The translations under genes and the position numbers were made by a program. Below, piece after piece: positions 1,557 to 60,872 of a stretch of DNA of 64,000 nucleotides. The notes beneath the pieces were generated by a model. It had not been told where the DNA came from. It searched no databases and worked only from the letters and a program-made list of their open reading frames with translations. The stretch is from Escherichia phage vB_Eco_F31. Position 1 is the stretch's first letter. Every line of letters begins with the position of its first letter. Location: sequence record OP870147.1; one strand, 5' to 3'.

Positions 1557-2041
1557 ATATACGCTTTCCAAGTTCCTGTTTTAAATGTTGAGATTACGCG
1601 TTTCGCGCGATTAGGTGTCTGACGATACCATTTAGATTGGGCTAGATTTACTGCCGCTTCATCCCAACGTTTCTGTTGAAGCATACGAAGAGAATTAGTA
1701 AAACCGGCGACGCCTGATACACCCATTTGGAAGACCATATTGACCAATGCACACCGACGAACTGCATCTAAAGAATCATATACCGGTTTAAGTTTAGCAT
1801 TACCCAAGATTCCGCGGACGGCTTTATCAACGTCTTCATTAAATAGCTTTTCAGCCTCATCAAGGGTAATTGTACCGTTGCATTTACGTCCGATCATTCT
1901 GTCAAGTTCAGCTTTAGCTACGGCTAAAGACGGATTCTTTGTTACTAAATGGCCAATGCCAATCGTCCAAAAACCTTCAGTGTCTTTGTATAAAGTCAGT
2001 CTAAGACCTTCGTCATTACGAAGCATTTCAAATATATTCAT
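1553..2041 (-). CDS. e: lysozyme (endolysin)
   Basis: [15 protein letters not shown]...[12 protein letters not shown]... near-identical in pattern to T4 lysozyme; start at ATG 2041 (track starts at upstream GTG). Confidence 0.95.
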
Positions 2042-2043
2042 AA

Positions 2044-2067
2044 TACCTCCCACGTTTATAGGAGGTA
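2044..2067 (-). promoter_or_regulatory. gene e regulatory hairpin: SD-sequestering 7-bp inverted repeat with late-promoter-like TATAAACG in the loop
   Basis: Arms TACCTCC (2044-2050) and GGAGGTA (2061-2067); same architecture as the known T4 gene e control. Confidence 0.55.
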
Positions 2068-2075
2068 TTTATTAC

Positions 2076-2534
2076 TTATAGGAGTGTAGTGAGCACCTTA
2101 TATAATGATTTGCCCATTACATATTCCCATTGAGAAGGTTTAATTAAAGCGAATGCATCAAATTCAGGAATCTGTCGTCCGTCTGGGAATGTATGATAGG
2201 AATTACAAACACTGTTTCTGAATTGCTCGTGCTCTACAGGGATGGTATATAGGAACAGATGAATATTCTTATTGTCTGAGTAATGATGTTCACCTAGGTC
2301 TTTCAGGAAGGCAGGGTCGTATTGTGTAAACCCAGTTTCTTCTTCGCATTCACGAATAGCGGCTTCAATAGGAGATTCGCCAGGTTCGACACGGCCTTTA
2401 GGAATATCCCACCTATGAGCTAATGCACCTTTAGAACGAGAACCAGTTACACGCCCCATGAATAATTCTTTATCTTCGGTAAGGAAAATAATACCGGCTG
2501 ATAGTTCTTTCACTTTATTTTTCTTACTCATCAT
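2076..2534 (-). CDS. nudE: Nudix hydrolase
   Basis: Nudix box GRVEPGESPIEAAIRECEEETGF present; position after e as in T4. Confidence 0.88.
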   Translation of the reverse strand: MMSKKNKVKELSAGIIFLTEDKELFMGRVTGSRSKGALAHRWDIPKGRVEPGESPIEAAIRECEEETGFTQYDPAFLKDLGEHHYSDNKNIHLFLYTIPVEHEQFRNSVCNSYHTFPDGRQIPEFDAFALIKPSQWEYVMGKSLYKVLTTLL

Positions 2535-2760
2535 CTCGGTCCCATGATTTGGCCATTAATTCGGACATAAATTCTTCAATGCGCGTTTCTTTAGATGGAC
2601 TTTCACTATTAGAGACCGCAAGTTTGTAATCTGCAATAGGACAGAACATATCAAGGTCCATATTAAGGTCGTCTTTGATTTTTTCTTCTGACACATCTTT
2701 ATCGTATGTGTACAGATAACTATCACATGATTCTGATTTAATGTAAATTGCTATACTCAT
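2524..2760 (-). CDS. hypothetical protein
   Basis: ORF track 2524..2775; ATG at 2760 forms ATGA overlap with upstream stop; no recognisable domain. Confidence 0.45.
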   Translation of the reverse strand: MSIAIYIKSESCDSYLYTYDKDVSEEKIKDDLNMDLDMFCPIADYKLAVSNSESPSKETRIEEFMSELMAKSWDRDDE

Positions 2761-3248
2761 CTCAAATTCCTGCATTCGGTAATAAAACGTTCAACTTCAT
2801 TATTCTTGGCCTTTATCTTGTCTTTACGTTCCTGTAAACTACTTTTAACAAGATTAATAATGATGCCTACAGTACCGCCGCCAATGATGCCGCCAACAAC
2901 ACTTATGATAATAGATGCTAATAAGATAGCAATAATATCAACAAAACCGAAAGAACTCACCTTAGTACTAAAAAACCATACCGACGGTACAAATATAATC
3001 CATCCTGTTATCCATTGGCACTTATTGAAAAACTTTTCAAGCTCAGCTTGAGTTGTTCGTATTACTTCATCGATAGGTTGATATCCATTAATGTATCTGT
3101 TCACGATAATACCTGCTGGCTGGTCGATTTTAAATTCTTGGCAAATATGTTTCACTAAGTAGGATGGACATCCTGTCCAATCTACTGAATAGTACGAAAT
3201 ACCTTCATTGCCGTCGTCAATATTAGACCAATATGTTTTGTTAATCAT
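2757..3248 (-). CDS. small membrane protein, FIxECR-tail family
   Basis: 163 aa, long hydrophobic segment, C-terminal ...ERFITECRNLR. Confidence 0.55.
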   Translation of the reverse strand: MINKTYWSNIDDGNEGISYYSVDWTGCPSYLVKHICQEFKIDQPAGIIVNRYINGYQPIDEVIRTTQAELEKFFNKCQWITGWIIFVPSVWFFSTKVSSFGFVDIIAILLASIIISVVGGIIGGGTVGIIINLVKSSLQERKDKIKAKNNEVERFITECRNLR

Positions 3249-3934
3249 TACCAGCCTTCCATAGGGAATTCCAGATAAACTTGGGCATTGACACGAATTT
3301 CATTGGTAATCTTTTTAACTCGGTCTGTATTACGAGATACACGTCCGAACCAACGCCATCCGTTACTAATTGCACGAGAACCAGTGTGCCATGTTTGCCA
3401 ATCAAACTGAAGAAGAGTACGATCTGGAGCTTCCCATTTCTCTAGTTCACCTTTTTCAATTTTTTCGAGGACTTCTTTGTGCCACTGGCGATAGATAAGT
3501 TCGCCATCAGGAATCTGACTGAACTCTGCAGTTCCTGTTGCAAAATGAGTAGGACACACGTCAGCGTTAACAAGACCAAGAATATGTTCAGAATGGTAAC
3601 GAGGGTTGTCATAGTCAGGTTGTCCTGCAGTAATAAAGTGTTGACCAACTGGAATATCAGGGCGAGGAACATCGTCATGGTGGTATCCAGGAATAGCAGG
3701 ATACCAACCAGGCATCAGCATATGGACTCGTGAATCAAATACAACATGTTGATTAGTCCAATCAATTGGGAGATTGGCAATAAAGCTACGAGTGATTGAG
3801 CCACCATTATCCCAAGCAAAACCCAAATCACAATTAAAGAACATTGGTTCATTTTTGATTCGGTCATTTTGTACGTTATGTGCAAAACTACCAACTGCAC
3901 GAGCTTGACTATTAAAAGTTTTAGAACTATTCAT
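3248..3934 (-). CDS. hypothetical protein
   Basis: 228 aa ORF, ATG with GAGGAAA SD; His/Asp-rich segment GYHHDD; function not assignable by eye. Confidence 0.55.
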   Translation of the reverse strand: MNSSKTFNSQARAVGSFAHNVQNDRIKNEPMFFNCDLGFAWDNGGSITRSFIANLPIDWTNQHVVFDSRVHMLMPGWYPAIPGYHHDDVPRPDIPVGQHFITAGQPDYDNPRYHSEHILGLVNADVCPTHFATGTAEFSQIPDGELIYRQWHKEVLEKIEKGELEKWEAPDRTLLQFDWQTWHTGSRAISNGWRWFGRVSRNTDRVKKITNEIRVNAQVYLEFPMEGW

Positions 3935-3935
3935 A

Positions 3936-4241
3936 TTATTTTCCTCGACATTCTTTAATGAAATTTTCTAGATTGGTAGATTCAATAGCTTTTTTACGAG
4001 CTTCTGCATGTTCTTCTTCAGACAATTTACATTTATAATTAACCCAGACATTATGGTCGAAACTAGTCGTGGCATATAATAACAATGCTCCAACGAATAG
4101 CAAAAACGGCGATAAGAATACAAAACCAGGAACACCATCCATATCGTAAGCCTTTTGTAATACTGCAACAGAAAGAGCTGCGTAAAAAGGTGATGCAAAT
4201 ATTGTTAAAAGACCAATTCGGTTGGTTTCGCCTAATTTCAT
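3936..4241 (-). CDS. small membrane protein, FIxECR-tail family
   Basis: 101 aa, two hydrophobic segments, C-terminal ...ENFIKECRGK; early promoter module upstream. Confidence 0.55.
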   Translation of the reverse strand: MKLGETNRIGLLTIFASPFYAALSVAVLQKAYDMDGVPGFVFLSPFLLFVGALLLYATTSFDHNVWVNYKCKLSEEEHAEARKKAIESTNLENFIKECRGK

Positions 4242-4299
4242 AATATTCTCCTCATGTTTTAATAGGACTACTATAATATAGCCCTATCAGTTTGTACAC

Positions 4300-4500
4300 T
4301 TATTTTGACATTTCTTCGATGTCACGACGATACCCATCACGAACTTCACGAAGAGCTTCAAGGCCACACATAGGCTCGATACCAGTAATGTGAACTTGAT
4401 TAATCTGATACTCTACATCTTCTAACTGAGCGAAAACATAACGACGTTCTGCTGCACAACCAGGTTTAGCTTTACCGAAACGTTTATTCAAAGTAGTCAT
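4300..4500 (-). CDS. hypothetical protein
   Basis: ORF track 4300..4518; ATG 4500 preferred because preceded by GGAG SD and downstream of the early promoter. Confidence 0.45.
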   Translation of the reverse strand: MTTLNKRFGKAKPGCAAERRYVFAQLEDVEYQINQVHITGIEPMCGLEALREVRDGYRRDIEEMSK

Positions 4501-4538
4501 TTTTATATCTCCATTCACTCATTTGTTTTGATAGGTCT

Positions 4539-4568
4539 ATAGTATCAACAACTACAGACCTTGTAAAC
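4539..4568 (-). promoter_or_regulatory. early promoter (GTTTAC-N18-TACTAT) with flanking inverted repeat AGGTCT/AGACCT
   Basis: T4 early-promoter pattern upstream of 4300..4500. Confidence 0.5.
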
Positions 4569-4580
4569 TGTTTTGTGAAA

Positions 4581-5537
4581 TTATTTGAAAGGTTTTACCA
4601 TATGAAAGTTTTGTTTGAAACGCTTGACGTAATCGTCGTGTCCTAAGCTTTGGTACATACTTACTACTTTGCTATAATTTTCCCAAGCGAACTCACGGAA
4701 CCATCCTGATGTGATTGATGTACAGACCTTTTCAAGGGCCATCATAAAACTATCACGTGGATGGATTTTAAAGTCGTTAGGAATCTGTGAACGTTCAAGA
4801 GCTAATACACAAGCTTCTTCATATACACCGGCTAATTTAACCATTTCTGGTAACGATTCGAACTTCTCGCGTGAGGTCATGACTTCAGAACCGTCTTTCA
4901 TATAAAACTTATAAGCAGGCTGGTCAGTTAGTGCAATGGCTTCATGGATAGTATCATGGTCATACGTATAGATGTCATCTTTAAAGAACGCACTTTTAGA
5001 AGTGTCAAGAACTGGGTGAGCATAATTCAAGGTTTCTTTCTGGCGTTTCAGCATAATTTCAGTAAGTTCATCGTTCAGTGTAACACCTTTACCACGAAGA
5101 TACTGAATATGGTTCATAGTCTTTAAAAAGAATGGATTATTTTTCTTGAAACGATGAGACATCTTAATTGCAAGACATATCTCAGGAGTTGCCCAGTAAA
5201 ACCCGTTCAAACGGTCTTTAGTCAAATTTTTCTTGGAGTATTTTAAAAGGTCATAAGAAGACGTGAAATCTTCAGGAGTGAGTTCACCGACTAGTTCGCG
5301 AACGTTAGTGATAGCCGGAACGATGTATGCTTCAAAATGAGTTTCGCGTCCATTATGGAAGCATTTGAAAACTTGGACATCAGGGTTATCTTGGTGAACA
5401 TATACACCCATCATTTGATTTTTGAATGCATTCCAAGAACCTTGGTCCGCAATAAAGTCCCAGTCACTATTTTTAATAGCGCTAGAATCAATAAGACCGT
5501 GATAGTGAAGTGCACGAGAACCAATAACTAACATCAT
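4581..5537 (-). CDS. hypothetical protein with possible nucleotidyltransferase-like N-terminus
   Basis: 318 aa; N-terminal IGSRALHYHG...SDWDF resembles a GS...DxD signature (weak, unverified). Confidence 0.5.
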   Translation of the reverse strand: MMLVIGSRALHYHGLIDSSAIKNSDWDFIADQGSWNAFKNQMMGVYVHQDNPDVQVFKCFHNGRETHFEAYIVPAITNVRELVGELTPEDFTSSYDLLKYSKKNLTKDRLNGFYWATPEICLAIKMSHRFKKNNPFFLKTMNHIQYLRGKGVTLNDELTEIMLKRQKETLNYAHPVLDTSKSAFFKDDIYTYDHDTIHEAIALTDQPAYKFYMKDGSEVMTSREKFESLPEMVKLAGVYEEACVLALERSQIPNDFKIHPRDSFMMALEKVCTSITSGWFREFAWENYSKVVSMYQSLGHDDYVKRFKQNFHMVKPFK

Positions 5538-5565
5538 AATATTTTCCTCGGATTAATTCATTAAC

Positions 5566-5805
5566 TTAAATTTCACGACATGCGATATTATATTCATCCC
5601 AGAGGTCATCATGTGAAGCCTCTACCAATGGAACGATTGTACCGTTTATGTCTTCATTATAAGGGCAAATTGTACAGTGCGCATCTTCGAATCGGATGCC
5701 TTTGTGTTCAGATTTTTTATAACGCATATCGAATATCTTTGCAAACTTTTCACGAGTAATGGTTTTACCAACCACTTTGGTTCCGATACTTTCGTAATAA
5801 ATCAT
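5566..5805 (-). CDS. hypothetical small protein with CxxC motif
   Basis: ORF track 5566..5817; ATG 5805 preceded by GGAG; contains HCTICPY. Confidence 0.45.
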   Translation of the reverse strand: MIYYESIGTKVVGKTITREKFAKIFDMRYKKSEHKGIRFEDAHCTICPYNEDINGTIVPLVEASHDDLWDEYNIACREI

Positions 5806-5822
5806 TGTGGACTCCATTTGTT

Positions 5823-5863
5823 TTGATAGGACTACTATAACATAGCCCTATCTTGTTGTAAAC
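5823..5863 (-). promoter_or_regulatory. early promoter module (GTTTAC + TA-rich -10) with repeated element GATAGGACTACTATAACATAGCCCTATC
   Basis: Near-identical to the modules at 4262-4288 and 12443-12470. Confidence 0.5.
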
Positions 5864-5867
5864 TGTT

Positions 5868-6065
5868 TTAGCAAGAATAACTAGATGATACCCAGCCTTG
5901 AACAGTGATATTATTGTGGGATAATGAGATCGCGTCCTGGAGATTCAGACCTGCGTTATCTTCAATCCATAATGTAACTTCTTCGCGTTCTTCTGTTGCA
6001 ATTTGGAACAGGTTTTCCAGAGCAGCTACTGCCGTACGTACAGCACAATCTAATTCACGAGACAT
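5868..6065 (-). CDS. small protein, GWVxSSxxC C-terminal family (paralog 3)
   Basis: 65 aa ending ...VQGWVSSSYSC. Confidence 0.5.
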   Translation of the reverse strand: MSRELDCAVRTAVAALENLFQIATEEREEVTLWIEDNAGLNLQDAISLSHNNITVQGWVSSSYSC

Positions 6066-6074
6066 ATTGTTTCC

Positions 6075-6347
6075 TTAGCAAGTGTGAGAAGATGCGACCC
6101 AACCACCGGTTTCGAGGCTCAGGTTGTAGTCGTATTGGTAAACGTCAGCCCATTCAGCATAGCCGTTTTTTGTACAACGTTCAAGATCGGCTTTAAGATG
6201 TCCGGGTGAATGATAGGTTCCACCCATACCATAAGCTGGGTACAAGTTGAATGTTGTGTTTTGTTTATCAGCAATTTCTTTGGCAGCCTCAATAGCTGCA
6301 TAGATTTTTGCTACAGCTTCAGCCAGTTCGGTTTGTTCTTTAGACAT
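6075..6347 (-). CDS. small protein, GWVxSSxxC C-terminal family (paralog 2)
   Basis: 90 aa ending ...GGWVASSHTC. Confidence 0.55.
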   Translation of the reverse strand: MSKEQTELAEAVAKIYAAIEAAKEIADKQNTTFNLYPAYGMGGTYHSPGHLKADLERCTKNGYAEWADVYQYDYNLSLETGGWVASSHTC

Positions 6348-6356
6348 AATGATTCC

Positions 6357-6662
6357 TTAGCACAACGCAGAAGACGAAACCCAAGCACCTTCAGTAATAA
6401 CGTATCCATTACCTTCACGCTTAACATCGCCGCCATTATTTTCAATTTCATCTTTCATCCACTGGGATACGATTTCACCCTTAGGATAATAAGTACGACC
6501 GCTACCATAATCACCTACAGAAAATGATACGGCATATTGGTCTGCGATCTTTGTTGCTTCTTCTTCGATACGTTCAGCTTGATTCAGAAGTTTATAAATT
6601 GCATCTGAAGCGGATTTGGCATCATTAAACTCTGGTACTTTAATTTCAATAATCTTACTCAT
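6357..6662 (-). CDS. small protein, GWVxSSxxC C-terminal family (paralog 1)
   Basis: 101 aa ending ...GAWVSSSALC. Confidence 0.55.
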   Translation of the reverse strand: MSKIIEIKVPEFNDAKSASDAIYKLLNQAERIEEEATKIADQYAVSFSVGDYGSGRTYYPKGEIVSQWMKDEIENNGGDVKREGNGYVITEGAWVSSSALC

Positions 6663-7018
6663 TTTCTACATTCCTTAATAAAGTTTTCGATTGTTTCATT
6701 TTCACGTTTAGCTAGGAGTTCATTATAACTAATCATTTGAGAAGCGTAAACCTTTTTATTTTTCTTGTTATGGTTTATAAAATCGTAGTAAAAATAGACT
6801 ACAGTACAAAAGGATGCGATAGATGCAAAGGCTTGGGTATACCGTAAGTCCTGCCATTGGTCTGTGAATCCACCAGTGTTACCTATAAATCCTAACACAA
6901 CTCCGTCAATAAGAAATCCAACTAATCCAAAGGCAAATCCCATGCCAATACTCATAATAAAAATTAGAATGTTCTCACCAAGAGAAGGCCATACGGTTAA
7001 GAGTTGAGGCTTTTGCAT
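6659..7018 (-). CDS. small membrane protein, FIxECR-tail family
   Basis: 119 aa, hydrophobic core, C-terminal ...ENFIKECRK; stop overlaps next start. Confidence 0.55.
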   Translation of the reverse strand: MQKPQLLTVWPSLGENILIFIMSIGMGFAFGLVGFLIDGVVLGFIGNTGGFTDQWQDLRYTQAFASIASFCTVVYFYYDFINHNKKNKKVYASQMISYNELLAKRENETIENFIKECRK

Positions 7019-7392
7019 CTTATTTCCTTAACGAATTCCATAGCTTCTTCATATTCATACTTTTTAACAGCTTCATCATACTGAGCTTGGGCTTTTGCGC
7101 ACTGAACTTTCCACTCACGAACTCGAGCTCTGTGATGACGGCCTTGGTGCCAATATCCTGCCCAATTAATAGGCATTAATAAAAACGGTACAATAAGTGG
7201 TGCGACGAACATTAATGAAAACGCTGCATCAGACGATATAACTTTATTGGAATCTAAAACAGCTCCTATAATCATAAAGATTAAAAATGCTAAAGCTAAA
7301 ATAGGACCAAATAGTACTTCGTTTGGGATTAATTTACGTTTGTATTCGTATGCCCAGGGCTTAATTGGCATGTACAGGGTTGGCTTTGACAT
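6997..7392 (-). CDS. membrane protein (hypothetical)
   Basis: ORF track 6997..7422; ATG 7392 (MSKPTLY...) chosen; hydrophobic segments; C-terminal ...EFVKEIRCK. Confidence 0.45.
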   Translation of the reverse strand: MSKPTLYMPIKPWAYEYKRKLIPNEVLFGPILALAFLIFMIIGAVLDSNKVISSDAAFSLMFVAPLIVPFLLMPINWAGYWHQGRHHRARVREWKVQCAKAQAQYDEAVKKYEYEEAMEFVKEIRCKSLNS

Positions 7393-7963
7393 ATTCTCTA
7401 CATTCCATAATAAATTGCTCAAGGATTAAATTGTTAGTGAAATTAGGACTAACAACCATAGTTTCATAAAGCGCATCAATAGCACTTAAAGCATCAACTC
7501 TCTTAAGCAAAGGCTTGCCTTCATACATAGTTTCAGAATCGACGATTAAAGTGAAGTAGTATTTTTTATTATTGACCAGAACTTCTGTATCAATATAAAA
7601 CATGTTAGACCTCAGAAGCTTATCTCTAAAACCATAATAATCTTCAGAGCGTTCGCTGATATATTCCCATTCGGTGTTTAAACAACAAACAGACCACGTA
7701 GGAGCAACGAAATCAGTGAATCTAATATCATGGTCTGCAACTAGTTTAGCAATAGCTCCGATATCATGAATCATAATACCTGGGGCTAATAAAGATTTTC
7801 TGCTATGGCTAGCCGTTTTCTCGGTGGTCTCATAAGAAGACGACCAGTACCATTTACGTCCAGTTGCAACATATCGTAATGAATCAACTAAAGACGTAGG
7901 TGGATTTACCTTATCTCGGAACTCTTCGAACATTGAGTCAATATCATTATTTTGGTTTCGCAT
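7361..7963 (-). CDS. hypothetical protein (C-terminal EQFIMECRE motif)
   Basis: ORF track 7361..7984; ATG 7963 preceded by AAGGAG. Confidence 0.5.
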   Translation of the reverse strand: MRNQNNDIDSMFEEFRDKVNPPTSLVDSLRYVATGRKWYWSSSYETTEKTASHSRKSLLAPGIMIHDIGAIAKLVADHDIRFTDFVAPTWSVCCLNTEWEYISERSEDYYGFRDKLLRSNMFYIDTEVLVNNKKYYFTLIVDSETMYEGKPLLKRVDALSAIDALYETMVVSPNFTNNLILEQFIMECREYVKANPVHAN

Positions 7964-7980
7964 GTTAACTCCTTTATTAT

Positions 7981-8004
7981 CCAAAAGGAGGACCGGAGTC
8001 CTCC
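7981..8004 (-). terminator. hairpin GGAGGAC-CGGA-GTCCTCC + U-run (minus strand) after 8013..8606
   Basis: 7-bp GC-rich stem followed by TTTTGG on the transcribed strand. Confidence 0.45.
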
Positions 8005-8012
8005 GTATTATT

Positions 8013-8606
8013 TTATTTCAAAGAGTTAATATATTCTTGTACATCAGCAGAAGTGGTTTCGACACCAGCTGGAGTGCCATTGAACGTTTCAACACGAGTT
8101 AGAGTGTCTTCGATATCAACCTTAGTCAGTGCAGCGATTTCAATTACATCATCGGCCGTAGAGATACCAAGGGCATTAGCTGCTCGAGTTTCACGAATGT
8201 ATTCGAGTTTGATTGCCAGATTCTGCCGAGCATCATCAAGTTCAACCACCTTACGAGCAATTTCAATTCGCATAGCGGCATACCCGTCAGCTTTTGTATT
8301 AAGTTGTTCGGCAGTTCGACGATACAGAAGACCAAGCTTAGCATGCATAGTAACATCTTGTCCTTCGGCCAGGAGCTTACGAATTTCACGTTCCTTAGAA
8401 GCGGCTTGCTTGTTCTTTTCATTAACAAGTTCGCGAATACGTTTTTCTTCATTAATAGATTTAACAGAAGCCGTTTTTAGTTCTTTGATTTGGGTAATCA
8501 ACTTATCTGCAGCTGCGTTATACTGTTCTTCGACAGTCAGATTTTTAGCCATAGCAGTACCCAGTTTAGTGCGGATGAATTCAACAAGTTTCTTCAGTGT
8601 GTTCAT
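8013..8606 (-). CDS. coiled-coil protein (hypothetical; possibly PspA/IM30-like, unverified)
   Basis: about 198 aa, highly charged K/E/A/R-rich heptad-like sequence; ATG 8606. Confidence 0.45.
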
Positions 8607-8641
8607 ATTATTACCTTTCAATTGGTGGTTTATTATCCAAC

Positions 8642-8677
8642 GAGAGCATTATACTCTGCTCTCAAGAGTTTGTAAAT
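8642..8677 (-). promoter_or_regulatory. early-type promoter (ATTTAC-N18-TATAAT) with -10 inside inverted repeat GAGAGC/GCTCTC
   Basis: Pattern read upstream of 8013..8606. Confidence 0.45.
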
Positions 8678-8904
8678 TATTTTTTAATCAAATTGACATA
8701 AAACTTGGCGTCTTCAGGGTGCATGCCTTCGCAGTATTCTTCAACCATGAACTTCTTAACAGCTTCATAAGGACCACTCAGATTAAGCTCAGTTGTCCAG
8801 AACTTGGAATCTTGGACTGAATCGATACGAACTTCAGGGTGGCGGTTGCGAATAACTTCTTCGGTGTATTCATAATCAACGACATCAATACTAACTTTAG
8901 CCAT
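8677..8904 (-). CDS. hypothetical protein
   Basis: 75 aa ORF with AGAGGAAA SD. Confidence 0.5.
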   Translation of the reverse strand: MAKVSIDVVDYEYTEEVIRNRHPEVRIDSVQDSKFWTTELNLSGPYEAVKKFMVEEYCEGMHPEDAKFYVNLIKK

Positions 8905-8950
8905 TTTGTTTTCCTCTTGATTTGATGTGATTACTATAACATAAACTTAC

Positions 8951-9115
8951 TTAGATGTAAATTATTTCAACGTCACCTTTAGCTGCTTTATAACCTTCAG
9001 CCCAAGATACAACAGAGTTTTTATCTGAGGATTCAAATTCAGGCATTGGACTTTCACCAATATTCACACAGTATGTTTCTTCATTTTCATCGAACCAAAT
9101 AATTAAAGTAGTCAT
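8951..9115 (-). CDS. hypothetical small protein (54 aa)
   Basis: Manual translation MTTLIIWFDENEETYC...; GAGGAG SD; promoter-like module upstream; below ORF-track size cutoff. Confidence 0.4.
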   Translation of the reverse strand: MTTLIIWFDENEETYCVNIGESPMPEFESSDKNSVVSWAEGYKAAKGDVEIIYI

Positions 9116-9183
9116 TTTGTTTACTCCTCTGTTGTTGATAAACCCATAGTATCACCATCCTTGGTGCTTGTACATCATTATTT

Positions 9184-9489
9184 TTAATTTTTCCAACTTA
9201 ACAACTTGTAGTGTCCTTCATTCATACGTGGTTTATCCCAAGAAATACTAATATATGATTCACCGTCAATAGAAGTCGCCGGGTTTTTCTCTACCGTAAG
9301 ACCTTCACTTTCCAGCCATTCAATAGTATTTGAGCATAAATCAGAAGAACACCTCATCGGGAACCGGCAAGATTTTTCACCTTTAGCCGCAGTGTTATAC
9401 ATCTTTTCTAAAATACGCTTTTGCACGTTTTTAAAAATAGTTTCAGCAGATTCTTCAGATTTTTTATTCAGTTCAGTGTAAAGACTCAT
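9184..9489 (-). CDS. hypothetical protein
   Basis: 101 aa ORF, GAGGAG SD, early promoter upstream. Confidence 0.55.
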   Translation of the reverse strand: MSLYTELNKKSEESAETIFKNVQKRILEKMYNTAAKGEKSCRFPMRCSSDLCSNTIEWLESEGLTVEKNPATSIDGESYISISWDKPRMNEGHYKLLSWKN

Positions 9490-9517
9490 AATATTCTCCT
9501 CTGTGGTTGATAAGTCT

Positions 9518-9546
9518 ATAGTATCATGTCCTTAGAAGAAGTAAAC
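9518..9546 (-). promoter_or_regulatory. early promoter (GTTTAC-N17-TACTAT, minus strand)
   Basis: Upstream of 9184..9489, downstream of a terminator. Confidence 0.55.
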
Positions 9547-9577
9547 ATCTTTATGAAATATTTTTATGCCCTAGATG

Positions 9578-9607
9578 CCAAAAAGCCCCAACCATAAGGA
9601 AGGGGCA
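9578..9607 (-). terminator. rho-independent terminator (GCCCC...GGGGC + U5) after the 9613..10077 gene
   Basis: Stem-loop plus CTTTTTGGCAT on the minus strand. Confidence 0.5.
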
Positions 9608-9612
9608 TTCTA

Positions 9613-10077
9613 TTATTTAATTTGTTTAGCAGACCAGATACGGTCTTTAATAAGTTTTTGGATATCTTCAACATACTCAAGGCTATGAGCGTGAGGATTA
9701 TCTTTGAAGCTATGTGCTCGTGCCAGTTTCTGTCCTTCTGTTTTGATTACTAAAAGCTCTTTAAGAATTGCTTCATACTTAGAAATAATTCCTTTGGCGA
9801 TATTTTTTTCTTGAGCTGCTTTAGGGTCCGCTTTTGGCGCAGGTGCTTTACCTGTAGCTTTCTGGAACAATTCACCTGATGCAGCTAGGCTTTTAAAAAC
9901 TCGGCTAACAGTATTAGCATTAGTAAAACCTTCGGCTTTAAAATCTCTAATAAAACGGAAACGTTCTTCATCAGAGGCGTCTTTGTAAGAATATTTACCT
10001 GCTTGAATTGCTGCAATCGCAGCGGCTTTTACATCTGAACTAGATTGTTCAGTCAAAAATTCAGCGTATGATTTCAT
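9613..10077 (-). CDS. internal protein-like (CTS-bearing, MKSYAEFLTE...)
   Basis: 154 aa; N-terminus matches MKxYxEFxxE capsid-targeting pattern; Lys/Ala-rich. Confidence 0.55.
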   Translation of the reverse strand: MKSYAEFLTEQSSSDVKAAAIAAIQAGKYSYKDASDEERFRFIRDFKAEGFTNANTVSRVFKSLAASGELFQKATGKAPAPKADPKAAQEKNIAKGIISKYEAILKELLVIKTEGQKLARAHSFKDNPHAHSLEYVEDIQKLIKDRIWSAKQIK

Positions 10078-10121
10078 GTTGCTTTTCCTAAATTAATTAA
10101 CTTATCTATTTATTATTATGC

Positions 10122-10149
10122 CAAAAAGCCCCAACCTTTCGGAAGGGGC
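10122..10149 (-). terminator. rho-independent terminator (GCCCC...GGGGC + U5) closing the tRNA/small-RNA transcription unit
   Basis: Stem-loop plus CTTTTTGGCATAA on the minus strand. Confidence 0.5.
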
Positions 10150-10155
10150 TATGCC

Positions 10156-10340
10156 TTGCGGCAACCTTGTCGGGGTTCCACCTGCTAAGGCAAGTGTTTG
10201 TACGAAACGCCGGGATTTGAACCCGGTTATTAAGCAGTTGACGCTACTCAATATTTTTAAAAGGCCATATCTCGACCATATCCGAACGTTCCGTCAAAAA
10301 CGCTACTCGGCTTACGGCAAAGATATTTCCTCGAATCGAT
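10156..10340 (-). ncRNA. candidate small stable RNA downstream of tRNA-Arg (cf. T4 species 1/2 RNAs); tRNA-like T-arm CCGGG-TTCAAAT-CCCGG
   Basis: Non-coding stretch between tRNA cluster and a rho-independent terminator; T-arm-like hairpin at about 10211-10227; no full cloverleaf could be drawn. Confidence 0.3.
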
Positions 10341-10637
10341 AATTCGGTGCGCCGTTTCTGCTGTGATGTAAGGGGATATTAAAAAATCGTAAAGATTTAT
10401 TAAGACCAGTCCTTACTCAGGGAACATCAGTCCGACGACTTACCGGTAGCGACCCGGCTTCTTATTTTGGCATATCATCAATTTGCTCTCGACGCCGACG
10501 CCATAGATTAATAGCTTCATTAACACATTCGGCGTTTGGTATATGACGGCAATAATATAATGATTCGCGTTTCTGGAACCGATGTTGCAACGGGATTTCG
10601 TTTAAAAGGTCTTTACGGTCAAAGTATTCAAAACTAG

Positions 10638-10805
10638 TTAACCCGGAACGGTTTTAAGAAACTTCCAATGTCCGAATTCATTTTTAAAATAAACATAATC
10701 AGCATGTTGATATAATGAATTAATTAACCTATCGGAAATAACTGTTTCACGTTCGTTAAAATAAAACGTTAAATCATGAACTACCAGATACACATTGCCT
10801 TTCAT
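10638..10805 (-). CDS. hypothetical small protein
   Basis: ORF track 10638..10853 overlaps tRNA-Arg at its 5' end; internal ATG 10805 (MKGNVYL...) avoids the overlap. Confidence 0.3.
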   Translation of the reverse strand: MKGNVYLVVHDLTFYFNERETVISDRLINSLYQHADYVYFKNEFGHWKFLKTVPG

Positions 10806-10823
10806 ATTTTCCTCACTTGAAGT

Positions 10824-10900
<77 letters not shown>

Positions 10901-10903
10901 GAT

Positions 10904-10978
10904 TGGTGACCCTGGCTGGTTTCGATCCAGCTACCTATCAGTTATGAGCTGACAGCTCTCCCATTGAGCTACAGGGCC
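10904..10978 (-). tRNA. tRNA with CAU anticodon (Ile by lysidine modification, or Met), CCA encoded
   Basis: Manual cloverleaf: acceptor GGCCCTG/CAGGGTC, D-arm GCTC...GAGC, anticodon loop CTCATAA, T-arm GCTGG-ATCGAAA-CCAGC. Confidence 0.75.
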
Positions 10979-11040
10979 TTAATAACTTTCTATTATGAAA
11001 GGCACTTTAGAGCACCTTTGGTAATAGAGGGTATGAATTA

Positions 11041-12484: not shown

Positions 12485-12772
12485 TTACAGAAGAGTTTTT
12501 GCAATAATTTTAAGCTGAGCTACAGAAATATGCTTAGCTTTAAACAGTGCAGTCTCTTCAGCCGGAGAGATAACAATAGTAGCGCCATCTTTCTTAGCGG
12601 ACCACCCATCCCCTAAGTAAACAGTACCTTTTACTTCTTCGCCGTCAACCAGACTAATCATTGGTTTACCCTCGCGTCCTTTATTTGCTTTAATAACTTC
12701 GGAAGTAAGGGTTGCTTCGGTCAGAGTAGAAACGTTAGCAAAAGGTGATATAAATTCTTTATAGGATTTCAT
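12485..12772 (-). CDS. internal protein-like (MKSYKEFIS...)
   Basis: 95 aa; CTS-like N-terminus; sits where ipI lies in T4 (upstream of 57B). Confidence 0.55.
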   Translation of the reverse strand: MKSYKEFISPFANVSTLTEATLTSEVIKANKGREGKPMISLVDGEEVKGTVYLGDGWSAKKDGATIVISPAEETALFKAKHISVAQLKIIAKTLL

Positions 12773-12849: not shown

Positions 12850-13535
<686 letters not shown>

Positions 13536-59910: not shown

Positions 59911-60872
59911 TGTACTCTTTAGAAGAATTTAATAACCAAGCTATAAATGCGGATTTCCAACGAAACAATATGTTTAGTTGTGTATTTGCTACTACCCCAT
60001 CGACCAAATCATCTTCACTAATTTCGTCAATTGGTAGTTTTGCTTATAATAACTTAGGGTTGGATTCAGATTGGCTAGGATTGTCTCAAGGTGATATCAA
60101 TCAGGGCGTAACAACCCTGATTACAGCAGGAACACAGAAATTAATTCGAAAATCGGGTGCAAGTAAATATCTGATTGGAGCAATGAGTCAACGTACGGTA
60201 CAAAGCTTGTTAGGTGAGTTCACAGTAGGAACTTATCTGATAGACTTCTTCAATATGGCATATAATAATACAGGTTTAATGATTTATTCTGTAAAAATGC
60301 CTGAGAACCGATTATCTTATGAAACGGATTTCAACTATAACTCCCCGAACATCCGAATTACCGGTCGTGAAATGGACCCGTTAGTAATAAGCTTTAGAAT
60401 GGATTCCGAAGCATCTAACTTTAGAGCAATGCAAGACTGGGTAAACTCAGTCCAAGACCCTGTAACAGGTCTTCGTGCTTTACCACAAGACGTCGAAGCA
60501 GATATTCAGGTTAATTTACACGCACGAAATGGTTTACCACATACCGCTGTCATGTTCACAGGATGTATTCCTGTTAGTGTCTCTTCTCCTGAGTTAACGT
60601 ATGATGGTGATAATCAGATAACAGTTTTTGATGTAACATTTGCTTATCGCGTTATGCAATCAGGTGCTGTAAATAGACAGGCCGCTTTAGAATGGCTGGA
60701 ATCAGGACTTATTAGTAGTGTTTCAGGAATGTTTGGAAATAATCAGAATGATTCTGGACTAGGAAGTGCAGTATCAAGACTTTCTAGATTAGGTGGGACT
60801 GCTGGTGGTGTGTCTAATATAAACACATTGACAGGTGTGGTGAATTCTGCGTCAAGAGTTTTAGGACTATAA
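59910..60872 (+). CDS. 54: gp54 baseplate tail tube initiator
   Basis: 320 aa, same length as T4 gp54. Confidence 0.92.
   Translation: MYSLEEFNNQAINADFQRNNMFSCVFATTPSTKSSSLISSIGSFAYNNLGLDSDWLGLSQGDINQGVTTLITAGTQKLIRKSGASKYLIGAMSQRTVQSLLGEFTVGTYLIDFFNMAYNNTGLMIYSVKMPENRLSYETDFNYNSPNIRITGREMDPLVISFRMDSEASNFRAMQDWVNSVQDPVTGLRALPQDVEADIQVNLHARNGLPHTAVMFTGCIPVSVSSPELTYDGDNQITVFDVTFAYRVMQSGAVNRQAALEWLESGLISSVSGMFGNNQNDSGLGSAVSRLSRLGGTAGGVSNINTLTGVVNSASRVLGL

Follow-up and report, generated by a model that had tools for sequence, protein, structure and literature searches.

The nudE-to-tRNA region of Escherichia phage vB_Eco_F31, probably a Mosigvirus version of the variable e-to-tRNA accessory region of T-even phages

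What is the array of small open reading frames (ORFs) that separates nudE from the tRNA genes in Escherichia phage vB_Eco_F31 (sequence record OP870147.1), and is it an island directed against the host? In the 64,000-nucleotide stretch of this record that was analysed (the window), the region occupies positions 2524-10077 of the minus strand. Its 7,554 bp hold exactly 18 ORFs, numbered g1 to g18 from nudE toward the tRNAs, and lie between nudE and the rnaC/rnaD/tRNA cluster. (All genes, promoters and terminators given below with window coordinates are on the minus strand.) We consider it very probable that the well-known 'e-to-tRNA' region, a variable accessory region of T-even phages, is present here in its Mosigvirus (RB69-type) version, as an array of leftward-transcribed, non-structural genes arranged in promoter-early stem-loop (PeSL) cassettes. 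It is composed of a T-even backbone, e.2-e.6 (four of them small membrane proteins by our count), a 3.4-kb block, g3-g10, between e.2 and e.3, and the single-gene cassettes g4, g5, g15 (frd.3), g16, g17 and g18, each with a predicted promoter and/or terminator of its own. Seven early promoters of the sigma-70 type, resembling those of T4 (TTTACA-N17-TAtAgT), would drive expression, the other eleven genes being served by read-through and translational coupling, and in evolution the cassettes would be shuffled by recombination within PeSL and terminator motifs.

Several of the ORFs are very short (54-79 amino acids, aa) and were annotated by sequence alone, as would be the case if many of them were not genes and the region were largely non-coding or regulatory DNA, open by chance. 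This reading is already effectively refuted. All 18 ORFs matched a PHROG family at E <= 5e-19 and over essentially their full length, indicating that g1-g18 are real genes and not chance ORFs. (The PHROG labels read 'unknown function' throughout, except 'membrane protein' for phrog_2203, the family of g2.) At the protein level conservation extended even to distant phages (40-80% identity), every gene had its start codon at a proper distance from a Shine-Dalgarno sequence, and unique coding sequence made up ~6,950 of the 7,554 bases (92%), all on one strand. The about 18 small, densely packed and often translationally coupled ORFs of the original prediction were thus found as described. ATGA joined g2 to g1 and g11 to g10, TAATG joined g3 to g2, genes overlapped by 11 (g1/nudE), 22 (g12/g11) and 32 (g13/g12) nucleotides, and the gaps at g4/g3, g9/g8 and g10/g9 measured 1-9 nucleotides. 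The gene calls of phage JK36 likewise number 18, and those of phage mobillu 19, a frameshift splitting g2. In Pfam, NCBIfam and PADLOC scans of the 18 ORFs only DUF7275/DUF7277 (g6) and Phage_FRD3 (g15) were found; sub-threshold matches to PcfK, Peptidase_S78_2, hisJ_fam and MAG0920 were set aside as noise. An Rfam scan of the region reported nothing besides the two tRNAs. Among the database records sampled, the products of the predicted genes were annotated 'hypothetical protein'. The earlier statement that no function can be assigned therefore holds for database annotation but not beyond it, fold or motif assignments being possible for g3, g6, g15 and g18.

When the 7,554 bases were compared by megablast, 716 phage records matched, and 127 phage genomes had 80% or more of the region at a single location, with 95-98% identity. 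The best match was vB_EcoM_MM02 (98.4% identity, 100% coverage); mobillu, JK36 and APCEc01 were also among the best. In the records inspected, mobillu, JK36 and RB69 are classified as Mosigvirus, and the window is a T-even phage segment of this RB69-like genus. By tblastn, RB69 has all ORFs except g5 and g18, and its record (2003-2006) already names nudE, ORF130c, e.2, ORF132c-139c, e.3-e.6, frd.3 and ORF145c-150c here. Since the region is near-identical in more than 100 deposited genomes and belongs to a class already published, that of hyperplastic regions with PeSL cassettes, it must be regarded as already known.

The whole T4 genome, assembled from four pieces, was searched by tblastn with all 18 proteins. 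Six had T4 homologues: g2 (e.2; 41% identity over the first 46 residues only, 1e-7), g11 (e.3; 35%, 7e-20), g12 (e.4; 54%, 1e-48), g13 (e.5; 48%, 1e-58), g14 (e.6; 88%, 1e-112) and g15 (frd.3; 59%, 2e-30), the T4 copy of the last being located at 146.6 kb. The other 12 had none, so that the ORFs are not all homologues of T4 e.x or tRNA.x genes, and for this reason the idea of an accessory region survives. In T4 the interval from the end of nudE (67,490) to rnaC (70,908) measures 3.4 kb and contains seven genes (e.2-e.8); here it measures 7.6 kb up to the rnaC homologue, over twice the T4 length, and 8.3 kb up to tRNA-Arg, in agreement with the earlier statement that the T4 interval is shorter. 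In the Tequatrovirus teqhad the order is tRNAs, g18 homologue, e.8, a g16-like gene, e.7, e.6, e.5, e.4, e.3, full-length e.2 and nudE. As judged by gene order, the Mosigvirus region corresponds to a backbone of the teqhad type, to which are added the g3-g10 block, g1 (between e.2 and nudE) and different small cassettes on the tRNA-proximal side. The block (3248-6662) is absent from T4 and other Tequatroviruses. In 28 of 80 viral contigs with a g6 homologue, nudE, e and denV were found 1-5 kb downstream of it on the same strand, as in the window, and the g6 homologues of those T4-like phages were 63-75% identical to g6. The block thus appears not to be peculiar to Mosigvirus, many other T4-like genera carrying it at the same place. 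The gene sets of this interval differ among T4, teqhad, RB69 and the window, and conserved e/nudE and rnaC/rnaD/tRNA genes flank them.

Positions 2000-11000 were searched with the pattern T[TG][TG]AC[ATC]-N16-18-TA[TC][AT][AG]T. Seven matches were found on the minus strand and none on the plus strand, and their consensus agrees with that published for the PeSLs of T4/PST, TTTACW-N17-TAYWAT (PMC4122927). All seven are intergenic and end 25-38 nucleotides upstream of a start codon. Four are promoter/PeSL elements, upstream of g4 (4270-4298; TGTACA-N17-TATAGT with a flanking inverted repeat, family D1), g5 (4539-4567; TTTACA-N17-TACTAT, repeat families D1 and D5), g7 (5834-5862; TTTACA-N17-TATAGT, the D1 reference copy) and g15 (8933-8961; family D1). 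The others precede g14 (8648-8676; TTTACA-N17-TATAAT, 11 of 12 matches), g16 (9146-9174) and g17 (9518-9545). With a recognisable promoter at only 7 of the 18 genes, the claim that most genes have an early promoter of their own could not be maintained. The promoter copies belong to the ~48-nucleotide repeat families D1 and D5 (60-100% identity), which include promoters of internal-protein genes outside the region, and an inverted repeat, GATAGGGCTAT...ATAGTAGTCCTATC, surrounds the -10 element of the g4, g7 and 12440-12487 copies. A hairpin resembling an intrinsic terminator (GGAGGACTCCGGTCCTCC followed by a T run) is located after g14 (7987-8004), and an intrinsic terminator (GCCCCTTCC-TTAT-GGTTGGGGC followed by T5) after g18 (9575-9606). 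The latter is a 91% copy (repeat family D14) of the terminator that follows the rnaC homologue at 10118-10149. Promoters and terminators alike were called as pattern matches, and taken together they suggest the transcription units [g18], [g17], [g16], [g15], [g14 then read-through into g13-g8], [g7-g6], [g5] and [g4-g3-g2-g1-nudE].

Comparison of boundaries with RB69 covered two exchange events, at g5 and at g18. Positions 4300-4561 of the window (g5 plus one promoter) are missing in RB69. At the RB69 junction the sequence upstream of g5 extends to the -35 element GTTTACA and is followed by the g4 spacer, -10 element and ribosome-binding site. With this switch from the g5 side to the g4 side at the -35 element, the junction combines parts of both flanking PeSLs in one hybrid element. 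In the second event, window positions 9502-10122 (g18, its terminator and the g17 promoter) are replaced in RB69 by 1.2 kb encoding e.8, ORF148c and ORF149c. The two phages match again from the shared terminator GCCCCTTCCGAAAGGTTGGGGCTTTTT on one side and from the g17 ribosome-binding site on the other. The terminator at 10118-10149, the upstream boundary of the g18 cassette, is common to RB69 and the window, and beyond it the two phages diverge. In these alignments the differences from RB69 are whole cassettes, as the PeSL recombination model predicts. Gain, loss or swapping of cassettes by recombination in PeSL and terminator repeats is evident for g5, largely evident for g18 and presumed for the rest.

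Several points weigh against this explanation or narrow it. Everything said here on function, transcription and proteins of these ORFs is derived from sequence and predicted models. A general promoter scan was no richer than shuffles (41 found, 30 +/- 6 expected) and, since it was not enriched, the promoter assignment relies on the stricter pattern, the position and the strand bias. No early promoter was recognisable for g18, and the sequence AATAAATA approaches the T4 late promoter without matching it fully. Neither g3 nor g6, the two enzymes predicted below, reached a Pfam enzyme family or a PDB sequence, and the fold matches of g3 were modest (Foldseek E about 1e-3, TM 0.3-0.44). The g3-g10 block was either gained in Mosigvirus and others or lost in Tequatrovirus, neither direction being favoured. 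Finally, within the genus the region is conserved, 127 genomes keeping at least 80% of it. The term 'hyperplastic' used in the original prediction is therefore apt at the level of the subfamily, where 12 of the 18 ORFs have no T4 homologue, but not within the genus, where the region is stable at 95-98% identity.

The gene g6 (4581-5537; 318 aa; RB69 ORF134c; no T4 homologue) had been singled out as a nucleotidyltransferase (NTase)-like candidate, and at the level of fold and active-site motifs this was confirmed. Its only Pfam matches were DUF7277 and DUF7275, and 2,121 homologues were found in the protein collection. Among 42 homologues, with identities down to 46%, the residues G6-S7, D25-x-D27 and E69 were invariant, as were ~50 further residues of the C-terminal domain. 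The former represent the three motifs of Pol-beta-fold NTases (hG[GS], [DE]h[DE]h and the third carboxylate), suggesting that the active site of g6 is intact. An AlphaFold2 model (predicted local distance difference test, pLDDT, 91) had the NTase alpha/beta fold, with E69 within strand 64-73; no structural match covered the last ~170 residues. Model and motifs together point to an active-site-intact Pol-beta-fold NTase of the MenT/ANT(2'')/LnuA structural type. PDB sequence searches with single sequences of g3, g6, g13 and g14 and with family profiles of g3 and g6 gave no match below E = 0.1. The relatives of g6 are essentially confined to phages: they occur in 733 phage records, from Escherichia to Gordonia phages, and among 185,579 species genomes at 5 loci only, all on contigs of metagenome-assembled genomes. 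One Acinetobacter phage record labels its homologue 'putative nucleotidyltransferase'. Literature searches on DUF7275/DUF7277/ORF134c found no relevant paper.

Upstream of g6 lie three genes for small acidic proteins: g8 (5868-6065; 65 aa, net charge -7, the shortest member, ending GWVSSSYSC), g9 (6075-6347; 90 aa, ending GWVASSHTC; phrog_899, 5e-19) and g10 (6357-6662; 101 aa, ending AWVSSSALC; phrog_899, 1e-22). They share the C-terminal tail W-x-x-S-S-x-x-Cys. A hidden Markov model (HMM) profile was built from g8-g10 and close homologues, which it matched at 2e-11 (g8), 2e-23 (g9) and 6e-28 (g10), and was iterated over every ORF of 35 aa or more on either strand of 83 loci with g6 homologues (37-97% identical, up to 9 kb of flank per side). 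It found 192 ORFs, all on the g6 strand and 3.4-0.18 kb upstream of g6, save three located ~1.1 kb downstream of the g6 start. One to six copies were present within 2.5 kb upstream of g6 in 74 of the 83 loci. Since one large clade dominates these loci (50 of 83), clades were also counted. When g6 homologues were divided into 15 clades at 60% identity and same-strand ORFs within 5 kb of g6 were clustered, the tail family adjoined g6 in 14 clades; every other neighbour family did so in at most four, g3 and e.6 in two only. A profile search of 1.84 billion representative proteins yielded 171 tail-family clusters, nearly all of 70-120 aa and matched to the last residue, and 138 of the 153 sequences retrieved end in W-x(1-3)-S-[SA]-x(0-3)-Cys. 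Common features are an N-terminal helix with 'IADE', a 'YG(M/S)GGTYYP' loop and an acidic linker preceding the tail. No Pfam family was found for g8-g10 or for ten representative members scanned, and a search of the whole T4 genome found neither g6 nor a tailed family member. This synteny gives good support to a functional coupling of g6 and the tail family; g6 likely works with g8-g10, and would act through their invariant tail as the point of recognition.

Two other genes were considered for membership of the tail family. T4 tk.1 (60346-60534, in locus L006) gave a marginal HMM hit (E = 0.002) and has no W..SS..C tail; it was not counted. It matches through the helix and an 'EYGDAETYY' segment and is possibly a distant tail-less relative. 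The gene g7 (5566-5805; 79 aa; phrog_3723), the first of the g7-g6 unit, was rejected as a fourth member, as it had no HMM match and its homologues end differently. It had been described as a CxxC protein; its single CxxC is not conserved, the corresponding region reading HCGID, HCIND or HVTDD in homologues, with the second Cys replaced in most. In six phage contigs of the 350-kb class (jumbo phages; L049, L052, L060, L063, L065, L066) a g1-like ORF was observed directly upstream of a g9-like tail ORF, ~1.1-1.7 kb upstream of the g6 homologue, and in some lineages g1 may also be part of the NTase module.

The second predicted enzyme is encoded by g3 (3248-3934; 228 aa; RB69 ORF132c), which has no T4 homologue. 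It has 1290 homologues; identity was 69% or higher throughout the best 120, and a homologue encoded by an Aeromonas phage contig was 82% identical. The AlphaFold2 model had a pLDDT of 86, and the 50 PDB matches listed by Foldseek were mostly Fe(II)/2-oxoglutarate (Fe/2OG) oxygenases (ThoJ, GriE, MysH, HygX; probability 0.9-1.0). H85, H86, D87, D88, H183, R194 and R198 were invariant in 31 homologues; H183 and R194 are on consecutive strands of the model, and the loop bearing HHDD has a pLDDT of 59-66. In human PhyH an Arg follows the distal His by 11 residues, and g3 has the same spacing. Neither Pfam (PhyH, 2OG-FeII_Oxy) nor NCBIfam nor the PDB gave a sequence or profile match; one UniRef name among the homologues is 'Phytanoyl-CoA dioxygenase family protein'. 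From the model and the invariant residues, g3 is a probable Fe(II)/2OG dioxygenase of the PhyH type. Homologues of 71-77% identity were also seen in assemblies of Klebsiella pneumoniae, K. michiganensis, K. oxytoca and K. variicola, on contigs of 108-113 kb, which may be phage-plasmids or contaminating phage contigs.

At the tRNA-proximal end, g18 (9613-10077) encodes a basic (net +7), Ala/Lys-rich polypeptide of 154 aa. Its N-terminus, MKSYAEFLTE, resembles MKTYQEFIAE of T4 IPII/IPIII, the capsid-targeting sequence that ends in the prohead-protease site ([LI]-x-E). Six ORFs of the 64-kb window start with MK[STM]YxEF[ILV], all around the neighbourhood of tRNAs and internal proteins (IPs). Their starts are at 131 (cut by the window end), 471, 796, 1556, 10077 and 12772, and their 5' ends form the DNA repeat families D3 and D4. 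The phage would thus have no fewer than five or six genes for internal head proteins, located on either side of the region. Homologues of g18 were found in 511 phage records, some 400 of them with 60-80% identity; the Tequatroviruses sampled were among these. In teqhad the gene occupies the corresponding locus, T4 and RB69 lack it, and all records sampled call it 'hypothetical'. T4 Ip1, Ip2 and Ip3 are injected inhibitors of type IV restriction, each directed against a different GmrSD enzyme (PMC12373910). By its N-terminus g18 is a candidate for an extra internal head protein, which would be packaged into the head by means of the targeting sequence, cleaved after Glu10 and injected. Because T4 Ip1-3 inhibit GmrSD enzymes and g18 has their targeting sequence, it probably, by analogy, inhibits a type IV restriction enzyme.

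How g6 and the small acidic proteins might cooperate can be read in different ways. Since several diversified paralogues share one invariant tail per enzyme, we favour clients or adaptors over a dedicated antitoxin. Tentatively, and as a possibility short of probable, we propose that g8-g10 and g6 are an undescribed two-component system found across many phages, in which the NTase would recognise the W-x-x-S-S-x(0-2)-Cys-COOH tail of one to six small acidic proteins and then modify a tail serine or use the proteins as adaptors. The chemistry, be it nucleotidylylation or phosphorylation of the tail serine or interchangeable adaptors that direct the enzyme to its targets, is speculation. That the genes encode instead a toxin-antitoxin-like pair, with g6 as a MenT-like toxic tRNA NTase for shut-off of host translation and the small proteins as its inhibitors or regulators, seems unlikely. 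In MenAT systems the small antitoxin gene precedes the toxin, and the tail genes are likewise upstream of g6 on the same strand; however, g6 gave no match to DUF1814 of Pfam or AbiE/MenT of PADLOC, DUF7275 is outside the 145 residues aligned with MenT1, in the window g8-g10 and g6 belong to different promoter units, and one to six diversified paralogues with an invariant tail per NTase fit clients or adaptors better. It is quite unlikely that g6, perhaps together with g3, serves to repair or modify nucleic acids in connection with the tRNA genes or with DNA hypermodification, restoring for example tRNA 3' ends after attack by host nucleases or making the arabinosylated cytosine of RB69-type DNA. 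Enzymes of the CCA-adding/poly(A) polymerase type ('tRNA processing') were among the weaker Foldseek matches of g6, and in enterobacterial T4-like phages g6 is a few kb from the tRNA cluster. This linkage was rejected as not conserved, only 15 of 56 loci examined having tRNA genes within 9 kb of the g6 homologue. The Rnl1-type RNA ligase encoded 4-5 kb upstream in Aeromonas contigs is not a conserved neighbour either, the sole conserved partner being a tail-family protein. A part of g3 or g6 in the cytosine-arabinosylation pathway of RB69 was also rejected, since the published genes (gp3, gp28, gp45-55, gp159; PMC13326640) lie elsewhere in the genome and none here.

The wider question was whether the region is essentially an island of anti-defence or host-takeover genes, most of the 18 ORFs being independent inhibitors of host immunity or functions. 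We regard this as only partly plausible and on the whole doubtful. Early promoters, the small size and acidic nature of products (g1 -11, g8 -7, g16 -8) and the turnover of cassettes are in its favour, as is the proximity of counter-defence genes, the ipI (12485-12772) and 57B (12850-13305) homologues. The one place that gives the idea concrete support, by analogy with T4 Ip1-3, all of them GmrSD inhibitors (PMC12373910), is g18 with its internal-protein targeting sequence. However, PADLOC and NCBIfam revealed no homologue of a characterised anti-defence protein (no dedicated anti-defence library was searched), and e.6 (g14) is 88% identical to that of T4. Moreover, g3, g6 and g8-g10 are conserved across phages of Aeromonas, Acinetobacter, Pseudomonas and other genera, g3 with at least 69% identity in its 120 best matches and g6 in 733 records from Escherichia to Gordonia phages, a pattern unlike that of fast-evolving, host-specific inhibitors. 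The T-even anti-DarT factor AdfN is T4 30.3, outside this region; neither AdfN nor the RB69 arabinosylation genes explain it.

The remaining genes are mostly backbone members and small cassettes. Hydrophobic segments resembling transmembrane (TM) segments were found in four ORFs only, g2, g4, g11 and g12, fewer than the five to six membrane proteins predicted. The e.2 homologue g2 (2757-3248; phrog_2203) has 163 aa, TM segments within 92-135 and the C-terminal sequence FITECR; g4 (3936-4241; 101 aa, two TM segments; phrog_9798) ends in FIKECR, has an early promoter of its own and, among 80 loci, was present in one only, that of Mosigvirus. The e.3 homologue g11 (6659-7018; 119 aa) also ends in FIKECR, and the e.4 homologue g12 (6997-7392; 131 aa, two TM segments) in FVKEIRC. 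The soluble e.5 homologue g13 (7361-7963; 200 aa) has FIMECR 11 residues from its end. This motif, F-[IV]-x-[ED]-C-R (FVKEIR in g12; positions 2786, 3962, 6682, 7035 and 7414 for g2, g4, g11, g12 and g13, respectively), occurs nowhere else in the window; T4 e.3, e.4 and e.5 and the e.2 of teqhad have it as well. The codons that specify it also form the ribosome-binding site and start region of the following gene, so that the constraint may be on the peptide or, equally, on the initiation region of that gene. Whole-protein paralogy of g2, g4, g11 and g12 was rejected: BLAST similarity was confined to the last 13-22 residues, and there were no cross-hits between the PHROG families. What these four share, as far as the alignments go, is motif and architecture. 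Of the two paralog families originally proposed, both stand as motif-defined groups, unique within the 64-kb window.

The e.6 homologue g14 (8013-8606; 197 aa, helix-rich) is the best-conserved T4 homologue of the region; it was 50% identical in an Aeromonas contig and present in 31 of 80 loci. In a crude heptad test, no substitute for a COILS run, 29 of 200 shuffles equalled its score, so that its description as a coiled-coil protein found no support and is unverified rather than refuted. A relationship of g14 to PspA/IM30 was discarded, as hhalign comparison of a 26-sequence alignment with E. coli PspA gave nothing better than shuffled and reversed controls. Literature searches on e.4/e.5/e.6 found no relevant paper. 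The Frd3-family protein g15 (8677-8904; 75 aa) matched Pfam PF05798 at 1.3e-38. Next to it, g16 (8951-9115; 54 aa, acidic, net -8; phrog_5461) is a single-gene cassette, and its positional counterpart in teqhad agrees with it in length and VOG label. The cassette g17 (9184-9489; 101 aa; phrog_18312) is a short allele, matching positions 1-89 of 173 of phrog_6869. Closer to nudE lie g1 (2524-2760; 78 aa, very acidic, net -11; RB69 ORF130c; phrog_2900, 6e-37), which has no T4 homologue, and g5 (4300-4500; 66 aa; phrog_6200), the single-gene cassette absent from RB69.

Beyond the region, denV (803-1228), the lysozyme gene e (1553-2053) and nudE (2076-2534) are on one side and tRNA-Arg (10824-10900) and a tRNA called Met (anticodon CAT/CAU; 10904-10978) on the other. 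All tRNA-bearing T4-like phages carry a lysidine-modified tRNA-Ile (Nolan et al. 2006, PMC1524935), and the tRNA called Met is probably this species. The placement of the region between nudE and the tRNAs was correct, but the stretch 10078-10823 also holds rnaC/rnaD homologues and a frameshifted ORF. The former (homologues of the small stable RNAs, species 1 and 2, of T4; ~10201-10464, minus strand, within a match at 10118-10467) are located between the region and the tRNAs and are 92.6% identical to T4, vs about 70% for the flanking protein genes; no Rfam family reported them. In the near-identical contig L012, ARAGORN called a 'tRNA-Stop(tta)' 533 nucleotides downstream of tRNA-Arg, which may be the same element. 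Between rnaD and tRNA-Arg, the homologue of RB69 ORF150c/mobillu_62 (114 aa; 10462-10806, minus strand) is frameshifted near 10645-10650, one A being lost from an A5 run, so that the ORF is a pseudogene here unless the loss is a homopolymer sequencing error. Just beyond the tRNAs lie homologues of ipI (12485-12772, minus strand) and T4 57B (12850-13305). T4 57B is the nuclease Acb1, directed against the cyclic-oligonucleotide-based antiphage signalling system (CBASS), and IPI is an anti-GmrSD protein, so that known counter-defence genes do lie in the neighbourhood.

The region as such adds nothing new, the concept of PeSL cassettes being published; its value is a shortlist of testable genes. 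The predictions for g3, g6 and g18 and the linkage of NTase and tail family are leads, not results. They appear in no annotation of the records sampled, apart from the one 'putative nucleotidyltransferase', no paper on them was found, and literature searches revealed none describing either the DUF7277-DUF7275 NTase family or the W..SS..C tail family. The gene g18 offers a candidate injected protein in hundreds of T-even genomes, though not in T4 or RB69, that is directly testable against systems of the GmrSD type. The two predicted enzymes, NTase and Fe/2OG dioxygenase, are missing from the model phage T4, which may be why both were never studied. The strict association of the NTase with small W..SS..C proteins is a clean and tractable hypothesis, on a family occurring in at least 733 sequenced phages of many hosts.

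Among known systems, the closest are the hyperplastic/PeSL cassettes of T4-like phages (Arbiol et al. 2010, PMC2839356; Comeau et al. 2014, PMC4122927), whose promoter consensus, adjacent inverted repeat, Shine-Dalgarno sequence and start codon are matched here. As in the window, PeSL elements are intergenic and located in a variable region, and an indel with endpoints inside two tandem elements has been seen against a close relative, as at g5. The published examples come from RB49/phi1, PST/T4 and nt-1/KVP40, and PMC4122927 makes no mention of RB69. The g18 exchange differs from the published cases in that one boundary is a terminator repeat and not a promoter. With the T4 e.2-e.8 region (67.5-70.9 kb) the locus shares its position between nudE and rnaC/rnaD/tRNA, the orthologues e.2 (N-terminus only), e.3, e.4, e.5 and e.6, and the C-terminal motif (F-V-x-E-C-R in T4). 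However, T4 has no g1, g3-g10, g16, g17 or g18, its frd.3 is elsewhere, and T4 e.7 and e.8 are missing from the window. Phage teqhad has the same e.2-e.6 backbone and is without g1 and g3-g10. The RB69 segment RB69p129-p150 (nudE to tRNA-Arg) has the same gene order, with 16 of the 18 ORFs 90-100% identical at the protein level, and about 130 other Mosigvirus genomes, including MM02, mobillu, JK36 and APCEc01, carry the segment at 95-98% nucleotide identity. RB69 differs in having no g5 cassette, in having 1.2 kb with e.8, ORF148c and ORF149c in place of g18, and in that its record splits g10 into two ORFs (ORF138c/139c). In mobillu and JK36, g17 is present as a long allele of 167 aa, compared with 101 aa in the window and RB69.

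At the level of single proteins, g6 does not belong by sequence to the MenT/AbiEii (DUF1814) toxins or to ANT(2'')/LnuA, its Pfam matches being DUF7277/DUF7275 only and PADLOC giving nothing, and it has ~170 extra, highly conserved C-terminal residues; the alignment with MenT1 extends over 145 residues and leaves the large conserved DUF7275 outside. Whereas MenT/AbiEii toxins have a cognate MenA/AbiEi antitoxin, the partner of g6 is a small tail-family protein without a Pfam match. With PhyH-type dioxygenases (GriE, ThoJ, MysH, HygX, proline hydroxylases) g3 shares the predicted double-stranded beta-helix fold, and its invariant His and Asp residues may correspond to their H-x-D ... H; it is shorter (228 aa) and carries its H-H-D-D in a low-confidence 40-residue loop. 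Finally, g18 resembles T4 IPI-III (Ip1-3) in the targeting decapeptide, the basic Ala/Lys-rich make-up, the IP-rich neighbourhood of the tRNA cluster and its status as a polymorphic cassette, and its sequence similarity to these proteins is confined to the targeting sequence.

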